Assembly (NCBI GenBank): GCA_003599595.1
Contig: QZIP01000011.1
Span: forward strand, 2,638-66,637
Reading direction: 5' to 3'
Length of the DNA: 64,000 bases
Origin: Candidatus Parcubacteria bacterium
GTDB taxonomy: Bacteria > Patescibacteriota > Microgenomatia > Levybacterales > GWA1-39-11
A model generated the notes under the pieces. The model did not search any database. It was not told where the DNA came from and was given only the letters and a program-made list of their open reading frames with translations. The translations under genes and the position numbers were made by a program. Below are positions 4,031 through 15,161 of this stretch, one piece after another (position 1 is the first letter of the stretch; every line of letters starts with the position of its first letter).

Positions 4031-4150
4031 CAGCTAAGATTCTCACAGAGTTATATCAGATTTTCACAGATATTTCTTAGTATTAGACGGTAGATGATAG
4101 AAGATAGAAGGTAATGCTTTGAGGATATGTGTTGCCTGTTTAGGCTTAGT

Positions 4151-6190
4151 CTATGTATTAGTATTTCCCCCTTGGTTTTGCTGGTTTCTAGCTATTTGCT
4201 GCTGAGCTCTTTCATGTCTACTTAGGGTTTGCTGGTTTTGTGCAGGTTGACTTCCTGTTGCTTGAGTTGTTGGAGGTTGGCCTGTCCGCGGTTGGGGTTG
4301 ATTTCGTTTTATTGGGAAGACTCTACCTAAAAGACCACCAGATTCACCTGGATCCTCTCTCCAGCCTCCAAGTACATTCCCAAAGAGTGTTCCAAGCATA
4401 GTTTTGCCCTTAAATCTTGAATAAAGATATGTATTCAACATTCCTTTTGGATTACCCATATTGTCAGTTCTCCAGAATTGTTTTCCAACCCCACCGGTAA
4501 ACGCACTGCTTGCTCCCTGTCCTACACCAATTGCCTTGCCAATAATTGCAGGATATTTCATCTCAGGGGACTTAAACGCATCCCGCGTCATATTTACCAC
4601 CTCAGGTGTTAACAGAATTATTCCAAGCCCTACAATGTTTGCAAACAAGGCTGGATCTCCCGGGTTTCCTATAAGAGGGGGTAGGAAGGGGTCTTGATGT
4701 TTGACAGCAAAAACTTCCATAAACGCCTTTCCAAGCATAAACATTATAATTGCAGTTGGAAAAGCAGAGAGATGTGCCAAAAGATCCCGGATCCAGGAAC
4801 CAAAACCTGTGCTTACACCAGGTATAAGCCCAGCACCTATCCAAAATGGAGCAAAGATAACATCCATTAATATAAAAACATAAGATTTTAAAAGCTGGAA
4901 CCAAAGCCTGAAAAGCGCCCAAAGAATAGCCACAAAAACTATAAGAAATGTAATTAGGTAAGGTATAAGCCATCTGAGTGAGGTCTCAAGCGCGGCATAG
5001 GTAGCATATCCTGTAATAAATCCTGTCAGTGGGCCCGCATTCACAAATCCTAAATCAGACATCGTTGCAACTTTTGCTCCAACGCCAAATCCCGCAAATA
5101 AACTAATTGTGTCTATCATCCAATTTGCAAAACTAAAATTATTCCAGTCAAAAGCGAATTGACCTGAGCTTATAAATTCATTAAAAGGAATAATAGCTTG
5201 TAGAGGGTCTGTGTTTATATTCATAATATTTCCAATAATTTCCTTCACAGAAAGAGCTACGTTGCTTGCCATTCCATGGATTCCTCCAAAGCTGTTATTA
5301 ACCACTTCAAAAGTTGTCCTGCCATAAGCATCCGCAGGATTTAAATTCATTACATTTATGCCCGTACCTTGCACAAGCAAAAAGAAAAAATACATAACAA
5401 GCCACATAAGATCAATCAAAATCCCTACAATAGCATAGGAAAATGTGATCAAAATCAAAGTTACTATAATTTTGGGAATCTGGTTTTGAATAGACATAAC
5501 AGTCCTGGCATCAATTTGAATCCGGAACATAATCCCAAGCCCCACAAGCACAAAAATAATTACAAATAAAAGATATACAACATCACGGAACACCTTCCAC
5601 AACTCCATGACTGGTTCAAGCCCTTTAAATCCTACTCCTTGCGCATAAGCAGGTTTTACAATTCCAAATCTACTCCCAAGATCTGCAAAATACTGGTTTG
5701 AAGATATGGGAATTTTATAGGTCATTCCTATTAGATTTGCCGCAAACCCCACCATGCCGCCACTGTTTTCAACAAATCCTATTTTTTTTGCCTCAGGATC
5801 TATTCCTAGACACTTGCCTTCTGGATTAACAGGATCAAATCCAGCAATCTGACAGACAAAAGCAGACATTACCTCAATCATCACATTCTGCGTTCTGTAA
5901 TGAAGATCAGGCGGGGGAGTGTATTCAGGCAAAGGGGTAGGAGCTTGTACTACATTATTATAATTATATATAGGCACTGTTTGCTGATTTACTTCTTGTT
6001 CATTGTCTATTTGCGGGAGTGCAGGTGTGATAGTATTTGTGGAGTTAATAATGTTATCTACGGGGTAGTTTTGTACGCTCTGAGCATAAACAGGCTGTAG
6101 TTTTAAAAAGAAGAACGTTATCAATAGAAAAATAACAGGGCAGATTTTCCTCATTAATTTTAGTATGAATACTCTACAAATAAATGTCAA
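4151..6190 (-). CDS. Polytopic membrane protein with VirB6/TrbL-like architecture
   Basis: N-terminal signal-peptide-like segment (MRKICPVIFLLITFFFLKLQPVYAQS), an extracytoplasmic domain of about 170 aa, then multiple hydrophobic helices and a Gln/Pro-rich hydrophilic C-terminal tail (PRTGQPPTTQATGSQPAQNQQ...). This topology is typical of TrbL/VirB6 proteins. The true start is probably the internal Met (MRKIC). Confidence 0.4.
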   Translation of the reverse strand: MTFICRVFILKLMRKICPVIFLLITFFFLKLQPVYAQSVQNYPVDNIINSTNTITPALPQIDNEQEVNQQTVPIYNYNNVVQAPTPLPEYTPPPDLHYRTQNVMIEVMSAFVCQIAGFDPVNPEGKCLGIDPEAKKIGFVENSGGMVGFAANLIGMTYKIPISSNQYFADLGSRFGIVKPAYAQGVGFKGLEPVMELWKVFRDVVYLLFVIIFVLVGLGIMFRIQIDARTVMSIQNQIPKIIVTLILITFSYAIVGILIDLMWLVMYFFFLLVQGTGINVMNLNPADAYGRTTFEVVNNSFGGIHGMASNVALSVKEIIGNIMNINTDPLQAIIPFNEFISSGQFAFDWNNFSFANWMIDTISLFAGFGVGAKVATMSDLGFVNAGPLTGFITGYATYAALETSLRWLIPYLITFLIVFVAILWALFRLWFQLLKSYVFILMDVIFAPFWIGAGLIPGVSTGFGSWIRDLLAHLSAFPTAIIMFMLGKAFMEVFAVKHQDPFLPPLIGNPGDPALFANIVGLGIILLTPEVVNMTRDAFKSPEMKYPAIIGKAIGVGQGASSAFTGGVGKQFWRTDNMGNPKGMLNTYLYSRFKGKTMLGTLFGNVLGGWREDPGESGGLLGRVFPIKRNQPQPRTGQPPTTQATGSQPAQNQQTLSRHERAQQQIARNQQNQGGNTNT

Positions 6191-7012: not shown

Positions 7013-7354
7013 TATAATTAAATGCTTTTGTGATCAATAAAATTGATCAAACTTAATTACTTATAAATAAGCAATTTACATACCCTTAACATAGTTTTCT
7101 CCAATTATTTGTTCCACAAAAAAAACATATTTTTTATTAAAATTTGAAGCTAAATTTTAAACTGCTATATTTTGATATCATTGTTAATAGTTGACTGTAT
7201 AGGGCTAGTGTTTTACTATATATCCTGGCACTAGATATAGTTTAGAATTTCAAATCTTAGATCGCAAATGTCAAATCTTAAGAAATTTATAATAATTGTC
7301 GCGAAGTGACACCTTAGTTTTGAGATTTGAGCTTTGACATTTGAGATTTAATTT

Positions 7355-7804
7355 ATGTTCTGTCCTTATTGTACAAGCGCTGAAACAGAAGTAGTTGAAA
7401 CAAGAGTGAGTGAAGATGGTGGGAGTATTAGAAGAAGAAGAAATTGTGTTTCTTGTACAAAGCGCTTTACAACCTATGAAAGAATAGAAAACGTTACGTT
7501 GGTAGTAATTAAGAAGGATGGAAAAAGAGAACAATTTAACAGGGAAAAGCTCAAAAATGGAATTTTAAAGTCTTGCGAAAAAACAAGCGTAACACTGGAG
7601 CAGATAAACAATATTTTAGATGAAATAGGAAGAGAATTAAAAAATAAAGATTCTGTTGAAATAGAAAGTAAAAAAATAGGTCAAATAGTTGCAGCAAAGC
7701 TTAAAGAGATTGATAAAGTTGCCTATATTAGATTTGCAAGTGTTTTTGAAAGATTTTTAGACCTTGAAGACTTTGAAAAAGAACTGAAGAGGTTAATAAA
7801 ATAG
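7355..7804 (+). CDS. nrdR: Transcriptional repressor NrdR (zinc ribbon plus ATP-cone)
   Basis: MFCPYCTSAETEVVETR...NCVSCTKRFTTYERIE zinc ribbon followed by an ATP-cone (VIKKDGKREQFNREKL...). It lies immediately upstream of an RNR gene. Confidence 0.9.
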   Translation: MFCPYCTSAETEVVETRVSEDGGSIRRRRNCVSCTKRFTTYERIENVTLVVIKKDGKREQFNREKLKNGILKSCEKTSVTLEQINNILDEIGRELKNKDSVEIESKKIGQIVAAKLKEIDKVAYIRFASVFERFLDLEDFEKELKRLIK

Positions 7805-8234
7805 AAGTTACTTGATCTAATTGCTCTAATTAATCTAATTTCTAAATAAGCACCAAACCTTTAAAAATAAACAAATAAAACTAATATCAAATGACAAATA
7901 AATAAATGATAAAAATTCAAAAGTTATAAGTTATTAGTTTATTAAAATATTTGATAATTGATTTGTTTATTGGGTTATTTGTTTATTGGTAGTATTTTGT
8001 GGGGATTACAGGTTTGTTACAAAAAGACCCGTTGAAAATTAACAATAAGAGATTATAATAGAACAGTTCGGTTTTAAAAACATGCGTGTAGTCATTTAGC
8101 GTCAGGTTAAAATTATCAGTGTAATCAGGGCGCGTCAGAAATAACAACACAAAACAGAACAATACGAATAGCGCCATAAATCCGTGAAAATCAAAATCAT
8201 TAGGATGCAATTAACATTTTAAATATTTGAACTT

Positions 8235-10676
8235 ATGAAAAAATTAGAAGGCCTATCTCAAAAAGTTTTTATTGATAGATATTCCCTAAAAGATAAAAAA
8301 GGTAATCCTCTTGAAAAAACGCCAGTTGAAATGTGGCGCCGCGTAGCAAAAGCAGTTGCCCAAAATGAGAAAAAAGAAAATCAAAAGTTTTGGGAAAAAG
8401 AATTTTACTATGCCTTCAAAGACTTTAAATATATCCCTGGGGGAAGGATTTTAGCAGGTGCCGGAACAGGCTTTTCTGTTACTTACTACAATTGTTTTGT
8501 TATCCCCAGTCCCAAAGATTCCCGTGATGGTATTTTGGAAACCCTAAAGCAAATGGTTGAAATTATGGCAAGGGGTGGAGGAGTAGGGATTAATATGTCT
8601 TCTCTTAGGCCGCGTGGCTCAAGGGTTAAAAAAGTCAATGGTTTTTCCTCAGGTCCCTGTAATTGGGCAGAGCTTTTCTCAGTTGCTACAAAAGATATTA
8701 TCCAGCAGGGAGGAACCAGGCGCGGTGCTTTAATGTTAATGCTTTGGGACTGGCACCCAGACATTGAAGAATTTATTACCGTCAAACAGGATCTAACCCG
8801 TATCAATGGTGCCAATCTCTCAGTTTGTGTATCGGACAAATTTATGGAAGCTGTTGAAAAAGATGGAGATTGGGAACTTGCTTTTCCTGACACTTCTGAC
8901 CCTGAGTATGATGCAAAATGGGATGGAGACCTTGAAGTTTGGCGCAGTCTGGGTAAAAAGGTTGAGGTTGTAAAAACCGTAAAAGCCAGAAAGATATGGG
9001 ACCTAATAGCTGATGCCGCCTGGCGGTCAGCAGAACCAGGTGTTGTCTTTATGGAGCGTTATAACAAGATGAACAATAATTGGTACTGGAATAGGATAAA
9101 TTGTGTAAATCCTTGTGGAGAAGAGGGATTAGCTCCTTGGGGAGTTTGTAATCTTGGATCAATTAATCTCTCTGCTTTTGTAAAAGGCAAAGACATAGAC
9201 AAAAAGGCTACTTTTGATTTTGAACTCCTTAAAAGAGTGGTCAAGTCAGCTGTCCGTCTTCAGGACAATGTGGTAGATATGGATCCTTATGTTTTTCCCG
9301 GTATTAAAAAAACACAGCTTGAAGGAGAAAGAAGAATTGGCGTGGGGACAATGGGTCTTGGTGACACGCTCATTAGGCTTCATCTGCGCTACGGCTCTCC
9401 AGAATCTCTAGGCTTTATTGAAAAAGTATATAAGCTTATTAGGGATGAGGCTTATTTAGCTTCTATTGAGGCTGCCAAGGAAAAAGGTGTTTTCCCTAAA
9501 TTTGATAAGGAAAAATATCCTCAGGGTAAGTTTATCCAGACTTTACCCAAAAATATTGTTGCTAAAATTAAAGAATTTGGTATAAGAAATTCAATAATAT
9601 TAACTCAGGCTCCAACCGGTAGCACTTCTTTGATGGCAAACACCACGTCAGGTATAGAACCGGTTTTTGAGTTTGAATTTATCAGACGCGACAGACTTGG
9701 TGAACATGTTGTTAGACATTATCTGTATGAAGATTGGTATAAAAAACATGAGCAGGAAGTAAAAGACGGTAAGACTAAAAAGCCTGATTGGTTTGTTTCT
9801 GCCAATGAACTTTCTCCGGAGGATCATATTTTTGCTCAGGCAACCATTCAAAAATATGTTGATGCTTCTATTTCAAAAACAGTTAACGCTCCCAAGACTC
9901 ACACAGTAGAAGACGTGAAAAAAATATATAACCTTGCCTACAAACTCGGTCTTAAAGGTATAGCTTATATGAGAGAAGGATCCCGTGTGGGAGTTTTTGA
10001 GAGAAAGGAAGACAAAAAAGACGATAAAAAAGAAGAGCCAAAACAACTGCCCGTTATTAGTAAGAGACCTATGGTAATCCAGGGGCTCACTTATCAAACC
10101 CAAACTCCTTTAGGTGATGCGTTTATAACAATTAACAGTGATAAACAAGATAATCCTTTTGAATTATTTATCACAATCGGAAAATCAGGATCGGATGTGG
10201 CAGGTATGGCAGAAGCATTGGGTAGGGTGATCTCTTTAGTCCTGCGTTTACAAAGTCCGGTTGCTTCCCGTGAAAGAATAAGACAAATCATTGCTCAGCT
10301 TGCTGGTATTGGTGGTATGAGATCTGTAGGTTTTGGAGAAAATAGGGTAAAATCTCTTCCGGATGCAGTTGCTAAAGTGTTTGCAGAGCATTTTGGTTTC
10401 AAAATAAACGGTAAAATATTAGACGTTAAAAAAGATGGGGTTAAAAACGGGGAATATAAAAATGGTGAGGTAAAAGAAAAGCTTAATGGAGACCTTGTAC
10501 ACAATCAATCAAATGGAGACTTAAACAAGTCTATGGTACTGCAGCAGCTAACCTTATCAAGCGATCAATCTGTTCATGATGGTCTTTTTGATCTTTGCCC
10601 CAGTTGCGGCGGTGCCACCCTGGCCCATGAAGAAGGCTGCAAGAAGTGTTATTCCTGCGGCTACTCAGAGTGTTAA
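8235..10676 (+). CDS. nrdJ: Class II adenosylcobalamin-dependent ribonucleotide reductase
   Basis: 813 aa with typical class II RNR N-terminus (FIDRYSLKD...PVEMWRRVA...YIPGGRILAGAGT), catalytic-core motifs (NPCGEE, SCNLGSINL) and a C-terminal CxxC...CxxC zinc ribbon. Followed by a PduO-type adenosyltransferase. Confidence 0.9.
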   Translation: MKKLEGLSQKVFIDRYSLKDKKGNPLEKTPVEMWRRVAKAVAQNEKKENQKFWEKEFYYAFKDFKYIPGGRILAGAGTGFSVTYYNCFVIPSPKDSRDGILETLKQMVEIMARGGGVGINMSSLRPRGSRVKKVNGFSSGPCNWAELFSVATKDIIQQGGTRRGALMLMLWDWHPDIEEFITVKQDLTRINGANLSVCVSDKFMEAVEKDGDWELAFPDTSDPEYDAKWDGDLEVWRSLGKKVEVVKTVKARKIWDLIADAAWRSAEPGVVFMERYNKMNNNWYWNRINCVNPCGEEGLAPWGVCNLGSINLSAFVKGKDIDKKATFDFELLKRVVKSAVRLQDNVVDMDPYVFPGIKKTQLEGERRIGVGTMGLGDTLIRLHLRYGSPESLGFIEKVYKLIRDEAYLASIEAAKEKGVFPKFDKEKYPQGKFIQTLPKNIVAKIKEFGIRNSIILTQAPTGSTSLMANTTSGIEPVFEFEFIRRDRLGEHVVRHYLYEDWYKKHEQEVKDGKTKKPDWFVSANELSPEDHIFAQATIQKYVDASISKTVNAPKTHTVEDVKKIYNLAYKLGLKGIAYMREGSRVGVFERKEDKKDDKKEEPKQLPVISKRPMVIQGLTYQTQTPLGDAFITINSDKQDNPFELFITIGKSGSDVAGMAEALGRVISLVLRLQSPVASRERIRQIIAQLAGIGGMRSVGFGENRVKSLPDAVAKVFAEHFGFKINGKILDVKKDGVKNGEYKNGEVKEKLNGDLVHNQSNGDLNKSMVLQQLTLSSDQSVHDGLFDLCPSCGGATLAHEEGCKKCYSCGYSEC

Positions 10677-10872: not shown

Positions 10873-11430
10873 ATGCCAATTTACACCAAAAAAGGAGATC
10901 AAGGGCAAACATCACTTCTAAATAAACAAAAGGTCTGGAAAAATTCCCAAAGGACAACTGCTTATGGAACTATCGATGAATTAAATAGTCTACTCGGTGT
11001 CGTAGTTGCCGAAATTGAAAACTCAGAATTCATGATTCATGATTCAGAATTCAAAAATCGGATAATTAGTATCCAAAATGACCTATTTCACATTGGTTCG
11101 TCTCTTGCCAATCCAGACAGTGATAAGGTTGACATCAATCTTTTAGAAAAAGTAAAAGATTTTGAAAAAAATATTGATGAAATGACAGCTCAAATGCCGC
11201 CCCTAAGTGCGTTTATTCTTCCCGGAGGGGGAAGAGTAGGATCTCTTTTTCAGTTTGCCCGCGCCACGGCTCGTCGTGCCGAAAGAGAAGCAGTTGCACT
11301 TTTTCAAAAAGAAAAAATCCAAGAAAATATTCTTGTTTATCTAAACCGCCTTTCAGACTTGCTCTTTACTTTATCCCGCTTTGCAAATTATAAGGAAAAT
11401 AAAAAAGAAGTCATTTGGAAAAAATCCTAG
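10873..11430 (+). CDS. pduO: PduO-type ATP:cob(I)alamin adenosyltransferase
   Basis: MPIYTKKGDQGQTSLLNKQKVWKNSQRTTAYGTIDELNSLLG matches the PduO/MMAB-family N-terminus. Contains a short low-complexity insert (SEFMIHDSEF). Confidence 0.85.
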   Translation: MPIYTKKGDQGQTSLLNKQKVWKNSQRTTAYGTIDELNSLLGVVVAEIENSEFMIHDSEFKNRIISIQNDLFHIGSSLANPDSDKVDINLLEKVKDFEKNIDEMTAQMPPLSAFILPGGGRVGSLFQFARATARRAEREAVALFQKEKIQENILVYLNRLSDLLFTLSRFANYKENKKEVIWKKS

Positions 11431-11479
11431 ACACCTCAACAACTTAAATACTTAGTCGTTGCTAGTAAAGCGATAAAGT

Positions 11480-11529
11480 CACCTCGGATGGTGGCCAAGC
11501 AACGACTTGGACTCCTCCGGGGTGGAGGT
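11480..11529. repeat. GC-rich hairpin repeat, copy A (CACCTCGGATGGTGGCC...GGACTCCTCCGGGGTGGAGG)
   Basis: Shares its ends and core with copies at 13150-13198, 15162-15202, 36505-36650 and 62521-62577. Confidence 0.6.
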
Positions 11530-11604
11530 ATTGAGAATAAACGTTGAGGAAATAAATAACGTAAATTAAGTCTTGAATAAATACTAATATACTAGTATAT
11601 TAGT

Positions 11605-11745
11605 AGCACTGTTGGTTTAACCACTGCCCTGTTGAATAACGGGGTGGGAAGGTTGAAGATTTTGGGAATTAGGTGTAAATCCTAAACTGTGCCGCAGCGG
11701 TAATTTCGATCATCTCGAATAAGTCCGAAGACCGACCAACATTGA
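11605..11745 (+). promoter_or_regulatory. Candidate cobalamin (AdoCbl) riboswitch aptamer with non-canonical element order
   Basis: B12-box-like CCACTGCC...GGGTGGGAAGG (11621-11652). Then GGGAAttaGGTGtAAaTCC...CCGCAGCGGTAA (11664-11702), matching the GGGAA-N3-GGTG-N-AA-N-TCC / CCCGC core consensus with exact spacing. Then GAAGACCGACC (11726-11736). An intrinsic terminator follows. Context: directly downstream of nrdJ and pduO. Confidence 0.35.
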
Positions 11746-11783
11746 TCCCGAGCAGGAAACTGAAAATATATTTGAAGTTTAAC

Positions 11784-11807
11784 CTTCTCGAGAGAGAAGG
11801 TTTTTTT
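11784..11807 (+). terminator. Rho-independent terminator, possible riboswitch expression platform
   Basis: Perfect hairpin CCTTCTC-GAGA-GAGAAGG followed by TTTTTTT. Confidence 0.7.
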
Positions 11808-11955
11808 ATGGTCTAAAAAAAGCGGCGCCTAAATTTTGCTTGTCCCTCATAGCTTTAGCGAAGTGGGAAATTTTGAACTTTTTAAGGGTGTCTCCTTGAG
11901 GAGTATATTCAATTATGCTCAATGCGACGAAAGGTGACTCCCTTATAGAAATAAT

Positions 11956-13110
11956 ATGTCATTTAAAACAGAACAGTCTCATTATCAGACAATAGATGTT
12001 GCAAACAGAAATAGAGAAGTGGTTGGTTCAAGAGCCTGCAATCTAGAATATCTTTCCCATGTTACAGATGAGGAAATTAGAGACGATATTGTTTCTTATC
12101 TTGGGGAATATAGATTTAAACTCCAAAAATTTGATTACAAATTGGCTTTGGTAAAAGATAGTGATGGGAAAGTAGATCTTTGTGATCCACACCGTCTGGA
12201 GTCTATGTCTATTAAGTCAAAAAGAGCTATTGAGGAAAGAAAAGCAGCCGGTTTACCAACTCATAGGGAAGAAGCAGAAGAAACTGGAATAAGTCACTTA
12301 AAAGATCAGCTTAGATTTGCAAGAATAGGAGATAGGATATTTTGGGCAAGTCCTCCAGGGCCCAAAAGTGAAGGTTATGGAAACTATGGATTTTTATATT
12401 CAGGAAAAGTTTCGCAAATAAACTTTAACACTCAGGGAAAAGCTCAATATTTGGACATAGATATGACAGCAATAAGAGTAGAAAATCCTAGCATAGCAGA
12501 ATTTAACCAAGCAATGAGTGCTCTTACGGGAATAAAGTTTGATAACAGAGTTGCAGATGAATTTTTAGAACAGCCTGTGGTAACTAGAAGGTCAGTAAAA
12601 GATAGAGAAGTGGATAGTGTTATTTGTCAAAATTTTGACTTATCAGCTGATCAAAGAGAAAAATTTGATCAGGTTATTGCAGGTCTCGAGTCACAATTGT
12701 TAATAGATGACCTTATAAAAATTATCAGAACAGGATCAAGAGAAGAAAGAATTAAGGCCTTTTACACTCTTGAAAATTATGCCTTAAAGCTTAAGTCAGA
12801 AACAGCTCTCAATGAAAAAGTATTATACTTGAATGATTATAAAAAGAGAAAGTCTTTACAGGAGTTAGCAGTTTACTACAGCTATAGGCCTCCCATAGCT
12901 TTTGGCAGTTGCGGCTCAACAGACTCTAGCAATAGCTTAATTGGCTTAGGTTCTCCAAATGTCTTAAGTACTTTAGTCTTTGGCCCATCAAGCGAAAGAA
13001 AGATTCTTGCTTGTAAATGTCCTTCTTGTGAAAGACAAGTAAACGCTGTAATTGAGAACGGAAAAATAACCTGTCCCAAATGCAGCGCCTCAGCAGACTA
13101 CAATTGCTAA
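11956..13110 (+). CDS. Hypothetical protein with C-terminal double zinc ribbon (CKCPSC...CPKC)
   Basis: 384 aa ORF with no recognisable catalytic domain. Sits downstream of the riboswitch-like element and terminator. Confidence 0.55.
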   Translation: MSFKTEQSHYQTIDVANRNREVVGSRACNLEYLSHVTDEEIRDDIVSYLGEYRFKLQKFDYKLALVKDSDGKVDLCDPHRLESMSIKSKRAIEERKAAGLPTHREEAEETGISHLKDQLRFARIGDRIFWASPPGPKSEGYGNYGFLYSGKVSQINFNTQGKAQYLDIDMTAIRVENPSIAEFNQAMSALTGIKFDNRVADEFLEQPVVTRRSVKDREVDSVICQNFDLSADQREKFDQVIAGLESQLLIDDLIKIIRTGSREERIKAFYTLENYALKLKSETALNEKVLYLNDYKKRKSLQELAVYYSYRPPIAFGSCGSTDSSNSLIGLGSPNVLSTLVFGPSSERKILACKCPSCERQVNAVIENGKITCPKCSASADYNC

Positions 13111-13262: not shown

Positions 13263-13967
13263 ATGTTTAACTTTTTTTTAAATTTTCTTTTTCCCAAAAA
13301 ATGTGTTGGCTGTAAAAAGCTTGGTACATATCTTTGTTCCAATTGTTTTAGTTTTATTTCTTTAAATACCGCATTTGTCTGCCCGGTCTGTACCAGACCC
13401 TCAATTGACGGTTTTACCCATCCCGTTTGCAGAACCAAATACTCTCTTGACGGTCTTATCTCTTGTTATGAGTACAAAGGGGTAGTAAAGAGCCTAATTT
13501 ATAAATTCAAATACAAGCCTTACCTTTCTAGTCTTAAAAATATTACAGGTAAACTTTTTTATGAAGCACTTATTCAGAATGAATTTTTTTATAATATTTT
13601 AAAAGAAAAACCAATCCTAATTCCTATTCCTCTTCATAAAAGCAAAGAACGCTCCCGTGGATATAACCATGCCCAGATTTTGTTAGAACGTATATCAAAA
13701 GATATCAGATTGCCAATTTATCCAAAAATCTTGTTTAGAACAAAAAACACCAAGCCTCAGTTTGGTCTAAAAAAAGAGGAGAGGATAAAAAATATAAGGG
13801 GAGCATTTGCTCTTAATTCAAATAATAAAATAGATCTTCGCGGCAAAACAGTTTTCTTGATAGATGATATTGCTACCACCTGTACCACCTTATCAGAATG
13901 TGCCAATGTCTTAAAAAGAAATGGTGCCAAAAAAGTCCTGGGCCTCACCTTTGCAAGGGAAAGGTAA
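13263..13967 (+). CDS. comFC: ComF-family protein (double zinc ribbon plus phosphoribosyltransferase domain)
   Basis: N-terminal CxxC...CxxC...CPVC and a C-terminal PRTase motif VFLIDDIATTCTTL. Confidence 0.8.
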   Translation: MFNFFLNFLFPKKCVGCKKLGTYLCSNCFSFISLNTAFVCPVCTRPSIDGFTHPVCRTKYSLDGLISCYEYKGVVKSLIYKFKYKPYLSSLKNITGKLFYEALIQNEFFYNILKEKPILIPIPLHKSKERSRGYNHAQILLERISKDIRLPIYPKILFRTKNTKPQFGLKKEERIKNIRGAFALNSNNKIDLRGKTVFLIDDIATTCTTLSECANVLKRNGAKKVLGLTFARER

Positions 13968-14583
13968 ATGCAAATATATTTGAATAGAAATAGTACATAA
14001 AATGTAGCACTTCGCTAAAGCTTCGCGCTACACACTTCTTACCCATTTTAAAAGCGTGGTAACCTGTTAATTGTGGCCTTCCACGCGTAGCTCTTTACAA
14101 AGTAAAGAGCGAAGTGTGGAGATGGCCGAGAATGACCCGGCGTCCAAAAACAGTACCTATAAAATATCTACAAGCGTAGTCAATCTTTAATTGTCGTTTT
14201 AGGCTTAACTGATTGACAAGGGTGTCCTAAAACCAAGGTTAAAAGATAATATAAGGTAACCAGCCTCATATCCTTTTCTCAACTTTGTTTATGCCCGTAC
14301 TGTCCCGTTGAGAAGGGTCAATACAGACAGAGCTTAGTTTACGTAAGCAAGATTGCGTTCGTAAGCTAGGTCACTAGAACTTGGTCTAGCATTTATGTTT
14401 TGAGACTGTTTTATCCGCCTGTTAAGGCGAGATCTCGCTTTCGCGGACGGCTGTGTCTCAAAGCCGGCTTGCAATTTTAAAAGTGCTATCTCTGTCGATG
14501 CAATGCATCCCCAAGACCAATATTATACCAAATTTTACCCTCAAAAGCAAAAAATTCAAGCTATAATTAGCTCAAACCACTCA

Positions 14584-15084
14584 TCAACGTATTATTTCTT
14601 TCAATTCTCTTTCAATATCTCTTTGAATATCTTTTTCTTTCAAAAGCTTTTTCTTTTCAAACTGTTTTTTACCCTTGGAAAGTCCTATCTCAAGCTTAAT
14701 CACACTGTTTGAAACATACATAGAGAGTGGGGTAAGGGTAAAATTTCCCTGACTTATTTTGGATTTTAGAGCAATTATTTCTCTTTTATGTAGAAGCAGC
14801 TTTCTGGTTCTGCTTTCATCATAGCCCTCAATCCTTGAAAATTTATAGGGAAATATCTTAGCATTCACCAGATACGCTTCAGACTCCATTATTTTTACAT
14901 AAGAACCTGTAAGATCTGCATGTCCACCTCTGACAGCCTTAACTTCCGATCCCAAAAGCACAATCCCAGCTTCAATCTTCTCAAATATCTTAAATGAGGC
15001 TGGGGCAGTCTTGTTATGTATCTGAACATTTTTTCTTTGGCTATGCTCATTTTTGTTATTTTCAGTAAAATTATTCATAAGCAT
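14584..15084 (-). CDS. smpB: SsrA-binding protein SmpB
   Basis: ...FEKIEAGIVLLGSEVKAVRGG...YLVNAKIFPY...RTRKLLLHKREI...KGKKQFEKK. The likely start is the internal Met (MLMNNF); the longest ORF extends to 15135. Confidence 0.85.
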   Translation of the reverse strand: MLMNNFTENNKNEHSQRKNVQIHNKTAPASFKIFEKIEAGIVLLGSEVKAVRGGHADLTGSYVKIMESEAYLVNAKIFPYKFSRIEGYDESRTRKLLLHKREIIALKSKISQGNFTLTPLSMYVSNSVIKLEIGLSKGKKQFEKKKLLKEKDIQRDIERELKEIIR

Positions 15085-15161
15085 ATTGTAGTGGGTGCAG
15101 GGAAAGCTTTCAAGTAGGACCCAATCTGTACCCAACTAACTCGAGTTTGAAGCGGTTTAAA

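Follow-up and report, generated by a model that had tools for sequence, protein, structure and literature searches.

In a 64,000-nucleotide (nt) stretch of Candidatus Parcubacteria bacterium DNA (contig QZIP01000011.1 of assembly GCA_003599595.1), which we call the window, a structured RNA element precedes an uncharacterised gene of 384 amino acids (aa), named X here. We consider it probable, at about 0.85, that the region 11596-11807 encodes a complete and conventional corrinoid riboswitch that represses X by transcription termination. As judged from the sequence, its aptamer (11596-11754) is an ordinary, non-permuted cobalamin aptamer, far beyond what chance would give, and the switch would most likely turn off transcription of the downstream gene when vitamin B12 is plentiful. 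The coordinates of the features are collected in Table 1.

Identity of the aptamer and order of its parts

When both strands of the 64 kb were scanned with 4227 Rfam families, RF00174 (Cobalamin) was the sole riboswitch found, with a score of 60.4 bits against a gathering score of 31.5 (E 1.8e-12). A cobalamin riboswitch had been proposed at this place in an earlier sequence-only reading of the DNA, which also considered a chance juxtaposition of its blocks; the covariance model (CM) bore out the former and its E value excluded the latter. All 189 positions of the model (1-189) are matched by one collinear alignment, in the canonical 5' to 3' order and with high posteriors, and within it the core GGGAA/GGUG..AA.UCC/GCCGC/GGUAA lies upstream of the B12 box. 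The box is thus found downstream of the core (11664-11703), that is, 3' of GGUG/GCCGC, as in the rest of the family; the B12-box consensus was reportedly given by Vitreschak et al. in 2003 as rAGYCMGgAgaCCkGCc. The predicted aptamer fold was more stable than those of shuffled sequences (z -2.63), and the minimum free energy (MFE) structure recovered P1, P2 and the terminator and also showed P5 and P6, the helices being closed by P1. A clade-specific model (R1), built from 20 aptamers of X loci, matched positions 11649-11741 of the window with 43.4 bits.

The sequence-only reading had distinguished three hallmark blocks and considered their order to be permuted. The strings that it quoted stand where it had placed them (CCACTGCC...GGGTGGGAAGG at 11621-11652, GGGAATTAGGTGTAAATCC...GCCGCAGCGGTAA at 11664-11703 and GAAGACCGACC at 11727-11737) and the core was rightly recognised, but the assignment of the box was mistaken: the block described as a 3' block is the true B12 box, and the early 'B12 box' corresponds to the two strands of an extended P2 hairpin, whose halves pair with each other. 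The order appeared permuted because these strands were taken for the box, and CCACUGCC...GGGUGGGAAGG (11621-11652) does superficially resemble B12-box or L5 motifs such as GCCACUG. However, a rotated aptamer would be matched only piecewise by the standard model, whereas RF00174 matches all 189 positions in normal order, and a canonical B12 box stands at 11721-11737. The early block belongs instead to a 22-nt insertion relative to the RF00174 consensus, which sits in the P2 loop and forms a 10-bp stem in the MFE fold (CUGCCCUGUU, 11624-11633, with AACGGGGUGG, 11638-11647), and the related locus L026 combines the same kind of P2 extension with a normal B12 box. We give practically no credence to a circularly permuted aptamer, or to a new variant class carrying the B12 box before the GGUG/GCCGC core.

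The window copy and the RF00174 family are alike in the full-length canonical match, the conserved core, the B12 box in the 3' half, helices P1-P6 and the B12 gene context. The copy differs from the consensus in two regions that are variable within the family, since about 22 extra nt make P2 a long hairpin and the P6 periphery takes up 9 nt instead of 61. The compact class II (AdoCbl-II, RF01689, of which env8HyCbl is an example) is present in most orthologous loci, upstream of X or of X preceded by pduO, the gene of a PduO-type ATP:cob(I)alamin adenosyltransferase, and model R1, built from such relatives, also matches the core of the window copy (the 43.4 bits given above). Unlike these compact copies, the aptamer of the window scores best with RF00174 and bears a P2 extension and a P6 hairpin that are absent from them.

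Expression platform and proposed coupling to X

The expression platform was compared between the window and 36 related loci. The small hairpin P13/L13 recurs 3' of the aptamer in most of them as the motif YYCC-CGAGCA-GGRR with a stem of 3-4 bp, for example UUCC-CGAGCA-GGAA and CUUC-CGAGCA-GAAG. In silico, the L13 sequence CGAGCA is complementary to the L5 sequence UGCCG over 5 bp with one bulged A, G11691 pairing with C11753 in the proposed register; this corresponds to the L5-L13 kissing loop by which corrinoid riboswitches link aptamer and expression platform (PMC10327014). L5 is kept as UGCCG in most relatives, and in L007 and L019a, where it reads AGCCG, it is accompanied by an L13 of sequence CGAGCU, a compensatory change from U-A to A-U.

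The intrinsic terminator was found independently of the aptamer analysis; its hairpin, AACCTTCTC-GAGA-GAGAAGGTT at 11781-11802, is followed by T7, in agreement with the terminator noticed in the sequence-only reading, and its 3' arm contains the Shine-Dalgarno (SD)-like sequence GAAGG. A mutually exclusive antiterminator, formed by L13 and the 3' strand of P13 with the 5' arm of the terminator, is the predicted MFE structure of nascent transcripts ending at 11790-11796. When the platform alone (11738-11812) was folded, the best terminator-free fold showed similar pairing and reached -13.5 kcal/mol, versus -16.7 kcal/mol for the terminator state. A terminator and an antiterminator that exclude each other are thus both present, as in switches of the repressing type, and their dependence on the ligand is what we infer, together with the step in which a ligand-locked P13 leads to the terminator. 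In many relatives the start codon of pduO or X comes immediately after the U7 of a second hairpin, whose 3' arm holds the SD. This downstream hairpin is complementary to the 5' half of P13 in about 15 relatives, with -9 to -13 kcal/mol, values that in 14 of these were equalled by no more than 15 of 300 mononucleotide shuffles; the antiterminator pairings covary among relatives (UUCCCGAG with CUUGGGAA, CUUCCGAG with CUCGGAAG).

The layout is the same as that of the Priestia megaterium metE corrinoid riboswitch, a repressing switch that was dissected experimentally by Kennedy et al. (PMC10327014), in which an L5-L13 kissing loop stabilises P13, and P13 and the terminator are compatible, giving the OFF state. 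In contrast to the P. megaterium switch, P13 of the window has just 3-4 bp, and in its relatives the 3' arm of the terminator doubles as a sequestor of the SD. L5 is UGCCG in the window versus the consensus UCCCG, and a bulged A of L13 is needed in the kissing loop, as described for env8HyCbl. With corrinoid bound, the L5-L13 kissing loop would lock P13, the antiterminator would be blocked and the terminator would fold, so that RNA polymerase would halt near 11805; with the ligand absent, the antiterminator would form first on the emerging RNA and allow read-through into X.

Corrinoid riboswitches of the opposite sign, in which the ligand promotes read-through, are represented by cobT of A. 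halodurans (PMC10327014). In that activating type, however, P13 and the terminator share bases and are mutually exclusive, whereas in the window P13 (11746-11757) has no position in common with the terminator (11781-11802) and the layout is therefore a repressing one: it is the alternative to P13, and not P13 itself, that competes with the terminator. An activating switch is accordingly very improbable here.

An antiterminator of another origin was also considered. The 3' strand of P2, GGGAAGGUU (11647-11655), is a perfect 9-bp match for the 5' arm of the terminator, but forcing this pairing costs about 20 kcal/mol (-40.6 versus -61.2), and the same P2 motif is present in L026, which has no terminator. 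The antiterminator based on L13/P13 was preferred.

Several observations weigh against the repression of X as proposed here. In the window the complementarity of the 8-mer amounts to -5.3 kcal/mol and was equalled by 136 of 300 shuffles, the antiterminator contains one C-U mismatch, and a platform fold that includes it falls 3.2 kcal/mol short of the stability of the terminator state. The pduO gene of the window lies upstream of the riboswitch and outside its control, the promoter located 5' of the riboswitch is a candidate by consensus match only, and the sequence alone does not reveal whether the ligand would be adenosylcobalamin (AdoCbl), methylcobalamin (MeCbl) or hydroxocobalamin (OHCbl). 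On the 3' side, the AUG after the U-run (11808-11810) opens in the window just the minimal open reading frame (ORF) M-V-stop; X starts 148 nt beyond this AUG, and its SD-like sequence AAAGGUGA has a poor spacing, at about 18 nt from the start codon. Since no start codon of X is found at the U-run, the coupling to X would rest on termination alone.

These last features would also suit a switch that stayed intact after a rearrangement had removed the gene it once served, X being now transcribed from a promoter of its own in the 139-nt spacer (11817-11955). A nearly identical hairpin-U7-AUG begins pduO in L006, L007 and L012, and the arrangement that starts pduO or X in relatives yields just M-V-stop in the window. 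By sequence comparison the spacer has no counterpart in the other loci and is unique to this genome, its structure is not significant (z -0.53), its Rfam matches stay within noise, and the start of X is overlapped by a 26-codon upstream ORF (11915-11995), which has an SD of its own, GGAG, at a distance of about 11 nt. However, a consensus scan revealed no promoter-like site on the forward strand between the one at 11573-11601 and X, although promoters of the Candidate Phyla Radiation (CPR) may deviate from the consensus used. Furthermore, the intact state of the aptamer, the L5/L13 complementarity, the antiterminator and the terminator speaks for continued selection, and in nearly all relatives it is X that the riboswitch has as its target. 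Because the spacer has no promoter-like site and the parts of the switch are intact, we keep the decoupled relic as an improbable alternative to a switch that still represses X; the mini-ORF and the spacer themselves are read as the scar or relic of a rearrangement. The spacer was also considered as a second RNA element or as a remnant of a relative's sequence, and this was rejected for want of an Rfam match, structure or similarity.

Two further structures were noticed 5' of P1. A perfect 24-bp palindrome, TACTAATATACT followed by AGTATATTAGTA, at 11582-11605 overlaps the promoter-like -10 (11596-11601); it occurs nowhere else in the window, where chance would give 0 matches, and could be the operator of a DNA-binding protein, that is, a second layer of control. 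It was rejected as an NrdR box, because the spacing of its half-sites does not fit the 16-bp NrdR box. The spacer between pduO and the riboswitch (11425-11600) is far more stable than its shuffles (z -3.94, 0 of 200 as stable) and contains a long hairpin at about 11480-11525, with neither a U-tract nor an Rfam match.

Table 1. Coordinates of the riboswitch, its surroundings and the gene pair found in related loci. Positions are those of the window unless a locus is named; bit scores of the protein families are given against their cut-offs.
Feature	Position	Strand	Description
NrdR repressor	7355-7804	+	PF22811, PF03477
NrdJ, AdoCbl-dependent ribonucleotide reductase	8235-10676	+	TIGR02504 (575.3 bits versus 399.95), PF02867
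PduO-type ATP:cob(I)alamin adenosyltransferase	10873-11430	+	PF01923 (186 bits versus 24, E 7.6e-55), TIGR00636 (184.7 versus 108.45)
Promoter-like sequence (candidate)	11573-11601	+	TTGAAT-17 nt-TATATT; consensus scan, 9/12 matches; directly 5' of the riboswitch
Cobalamin aptamer	11596-11754	+	RF00174; conserved core GGGAAUUAGGUGUAAAUCC at 11664-11682
P1	11607-11616 with 11735-11744	+	RNAfold MFE
P2	11617-11622 with 11651-11656	+	RNAfold MFE
P2 hairpin extension	11624-11647	+	CUGCCCUGUU-GAAU-AACGGGGUGG; insertion relative to RF00174, halves paired
P5 and L5	11687-11697	+	Stem CUG/CAG, loop UGCCG (11690-11694); CM alignment
B12 box	11721-11737	+	AAGUCCGAAGACCGACC; aligned to the RF00174 consensus AGCCAGGAGACCuGCC, posterior '*'
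P13/L13 hairpin	11746-11757	+	Stem UCC/GGA, loop CGAGCA (11749-11754)
Antiterminator (predicted)	11749-11790	+	CGAGCAGG (11749-11756) with CCUUCUCG (11783-11790), 7/8 bp
Intrinsic terminator	11781-11807	+	AACCUUCUC-GAGA-GAGAAGGUU, 9 bp; its final two U open U7 (11801-11807)
Mini-ORF	11808-11816	+	AUG GUC UAA (M-V-stop); site at which the regulated gene starts in relatives
Gene X, uncharacterised	11956-13110	+	384 aa; probable target of the switch
tmRNA (transfer-messenger RNA)	14114-14512	-	94.5 bits
DUF4430/DUF6580 gene pair	L004 1334-2139; L005 1570-2319; L009 1623-2365; L030 1798-2738; L031 1840-2765		Related loci

Occurrence of the switch and of X in related loci

A scan of species-representative genomes gave 35 loci with X, and 80 further loci came from metagenomes. 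In 28 of the 35 genome loci pduO is directly upstream of X, usually with nrdJ, the gene of the AdoCbl-dependent ribonucleotide reductase (RNR), before it (nrdJ-pduO-X). A cobalamin aptamer was found on the strand of X, upstream of X or of pduO-X, in 31 genome loci and 69 metagenome loci; the recurrence of the element before orthologues of X, by which the sequence-only reading had set store, is therefore observed. At the gathering score an aptamer of the cobalamin clan was detected in 16 genome loci (13 with RF01689 and three with RF00174), and 14 further loci had an Rfam match below this score in the expected place. Model R1 matched all genome loci but four, which are cut off at the 5' side, the match in L030 being a weak one. 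Among the metagenome loci the aptamer stands directly before X in 50 and one gene of about 550 nt further upstream in 19; ten loci without a match have at most 930 nt of upstream DNA each, one more has only a spurious match inside the gene, and no locus with 1 kb or more of upstream DNA lacks an aptamer. All 97 matches at E <= 1e-5 lie on the strand of X.

When 86 distinct related aptamers were aligned, 97.4% of the cells in four helices were paired and 278 of them carried double changes; the covariation score of these 86 sequences, in an alignment fitted to the model, was 0.591 versus at most 0.139 for controls with slid partners. The same aptamer, P13 and hairpin-U7-AUG also precede a very distant homologue (profile E 1e-26), whose short contig offers only about 350 nt of upstream sequence and shows no adjacent pduO. 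From the distribution of the aptamer across loci, X is therefore the constant target of the riboswitch, and pduO shares this regulation in part of the genomes, to which the present one does not belong. As seen here, the X family is confined to loci of Patescibacteria or CPR type, where it is nearly always riboswitch-controlled beside nrdJ.

Two aptamers were seen in L001, L019, L020, L077, L087 and L094, usually one before pduO and one between pduO and X. The genome loci are labelled Levybacteria, Roizmanbacteria, Microgenomates or Patescibacteria, with several bins of 'uncultured Gammaproteobacteria'; the title 'uncultured Gammaproteobacteria bacterium' is borne by L004, L005, L007, L011, L014, L017, L020, L021, L023, L025, L030, L032 and L033. 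For bins with an nrdJ-pduO-X locus of CPR type this label looks wrong.

In L004, L005 and L009 genes for a DUF4430 and a DUF6580 protein stand between nrdJ and pduO, and L030 and L031 have the arrangement DUF4430-DUF6580-X without pduO. DUF4430 is the C-terminal domain of B12 binders of the transcobalamin type (PMC4350170). In the X loci the DUF4430 protein has an N-terminal signal or anchor, and the DUF6580 protein, of about 180 aa, has multiple membrane spans; both together are a candidate corrinoid uptake system. A relationship of DUF6580 to solved B12 transporters was considered and dropped, no sequence match being found in PDB; literature searches on DUF6580, and on cobalamin riboswitches in CPR or Patescibacteria, returned nothing relevant. 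The 64-kb window holds no copy of the pair.

Downstream of X, a conserved protein of about 145 aa without a Pfam family is encoded in L025 (4060-4497), L026 (about 4377-4715), L028 (1446-1859), L030 (4150-4590), L031 (4164-4598) and L033 (about 4066-4380). A 131-aa ORF of L014 (4069-4464) resembles it by eye and gave no tblastn match.

In the window, profile matches confirmed the B12 context described in the sequence-only reading, with NrdR, NrdJ (whose C-terminus is a Cys-rich zinc finger) and the PduO-type adenosyltransferase preceding the switch. Two sites resembling NrdR boxes, TTTTACTATATATCCT and GCACTAGATATAGTTT, were noticed upstream of nrdR at about 7211-7243, near a -35-like hexamer TTGACT; they were judged by eye against the consensus. 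The nrdJ gene is preceded by a 430-nt intergenic region (7805-8234) with the sequence TTGAAA-17-TATAAT near 8033-8061, from which a leader of about 170 nt without an Rfam match would follow. Downstream of X there is a comF - tmRNA - smpB block (13263-15135), which is syntenic in L003, L008 and L023.

Protein X and its possible role

The 384-aa ORF reported in the sequence-only reading was confirmed, and its product has exactly the sequence of a hypothetical protein from a Candidatus Parcubacteria metagenome-assembled genome. X appears to consist of an alpha/beta N-domain, a helical domain, a flexible linker with an invariant GSCG, and a C-terminal Cys4 zinc-ribbon or rubredoxin-like knuckle. 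The family yielded 126 word-indexed matches and 252 representatives at E <= 1e-10; the members listed measure 130-510 aa, most of them 330-470, and none is long enough for an added domain. Besides GSCG, the motifs SYLGEYR, HREEAE, WASPPGPxxxGYGxYGF, MTAIRVENP and LENYA and the four zinc-ribbon cysteines are invariant, and a C-terminal cysteine is frequent. The N-terminus of X contains no hydrophobic stretch fit for a signal peptide or a membrane segment.

Searches of Pfam and NCBIfam with X gave no family over the body of the protein, and a PDB profile search with the family returned only Cys4 knuckles, such as the rubredoxin-like domain of rubrerythrin (E 0.12); zinc-ribbon models matched weakly in a few of the 40 aligned members scanned. 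X thus stands without a fold relative, and no family described in Pfam-A, NCBIfam or PDB matches its body significantly by profile or fold; the literature searches yielded no earlier account of it. The Cys-rich C-termini of X and NrdJ were compared as possible kin, and this was rejected, as they have the CPSC knuckle alone in common (E 0.3).

Taken from sequence evidence, X appears a well-supported member of a B12 regulon, and the downstream protein, which the sequence-only reading had put forward for a B12-related function, is a credible candidate for one. Repressing cobalamin switches typically govern genes of corrinoid supply or B12-independent substitutes. From its context, we tentatively favour, at slightly less than an even chance, an accessory role of X in the supply or recycling of AdoCbl for NrdJ, which might be removal of the upper ligand, reduction of cobalt or escort of corrinoids to PduO or NrdJ; X would then be made only when the cofactor runs low. 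This role is favoured because X is often co-transcribed with pduO, and often overlaps it (as in L014), because X is linked to candidate uptake genes, and because it has an invariant cysteine on a flexible arm together with a Cys4 module. Against it counts that neither homology nor a fold relative nor a motif of a known cobalamin-binding or redox-cofactor domain was found for X.

A second possibility is that X is a B12-independent backup for the deoxynucleotide supply by NrdJ, repressed by B12 like metE or like nrdAB/nrdDG elsewhere. X is indeed the constant riboswitch target and adjoins nrdJ, and one distant homologue is followed by an HD-domain phosphohydrolase; moreover, riboswitches of this class are said, after work of Rodionov et al. 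in 2003, to repress B12-independent isozymes. However, in about half of the genome loci and in 19 of the 80 from metagenomes, pduO and X are co-transcribed behind one riboswitch and often overlap, which fits cobalamin handling better, and X, with 330-510 aa, shows neither a resemblance to the RNR barrel nor a P-loop nor a fold relative. We regard a backup function as unlikely.

Returning to the accessory role in cobalamin supply, X could represent a new cobalamin-handling family, a cytosolic partner of PduO and NrdJ that processes, reduces or escorts scavenged corrinoid; we hold this, too, only provisionally, at a little under even odds. In such a family X would act possibly via the invariant linker cysteine and the Cys4 module, and CblD and BtuM are known examples of Co-S ligation by a cysteine. 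MMACHC/CblC, MMADHC/CblD and PduS are functional analogues only: the gene of X is grouped and regulated together with those of a PduO-type adenosyltransferase and an AdoCbl enzyme, but X has no sequence or fold similarity to these proteins and is not a member of their families.

For RNA biology the riboswitch itself, a textbook cobalamin OFF switch as far as can be predicted, brings nothing new. Regulon membership of this kind has earlier led to B12 transporters and enzymes. Compact conserved switches of this sort might serve as ligand-controlled expression tools in Patescibacteria, for which PMC11665869 states a need. Among these CPR lineages the X family, with its ties to nrdJ and pduO, is the most constant target of cobalamin riboswitches, which makes it a testable candidate for acquisition or recycling of AdoCbl in minimal genomes, where NrdJ is the only B12-dependent enzyme seen in these loci. 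If its proposed cobalamin-handling role is true, X would fill the place of CblC/CblD or PduS with an unrelated fold, and X together with the DUF4430/DUF6580 pair would outline a minimal B12 salvage island that sustains DNA precursor synthesis in ultrasmall bacteria.

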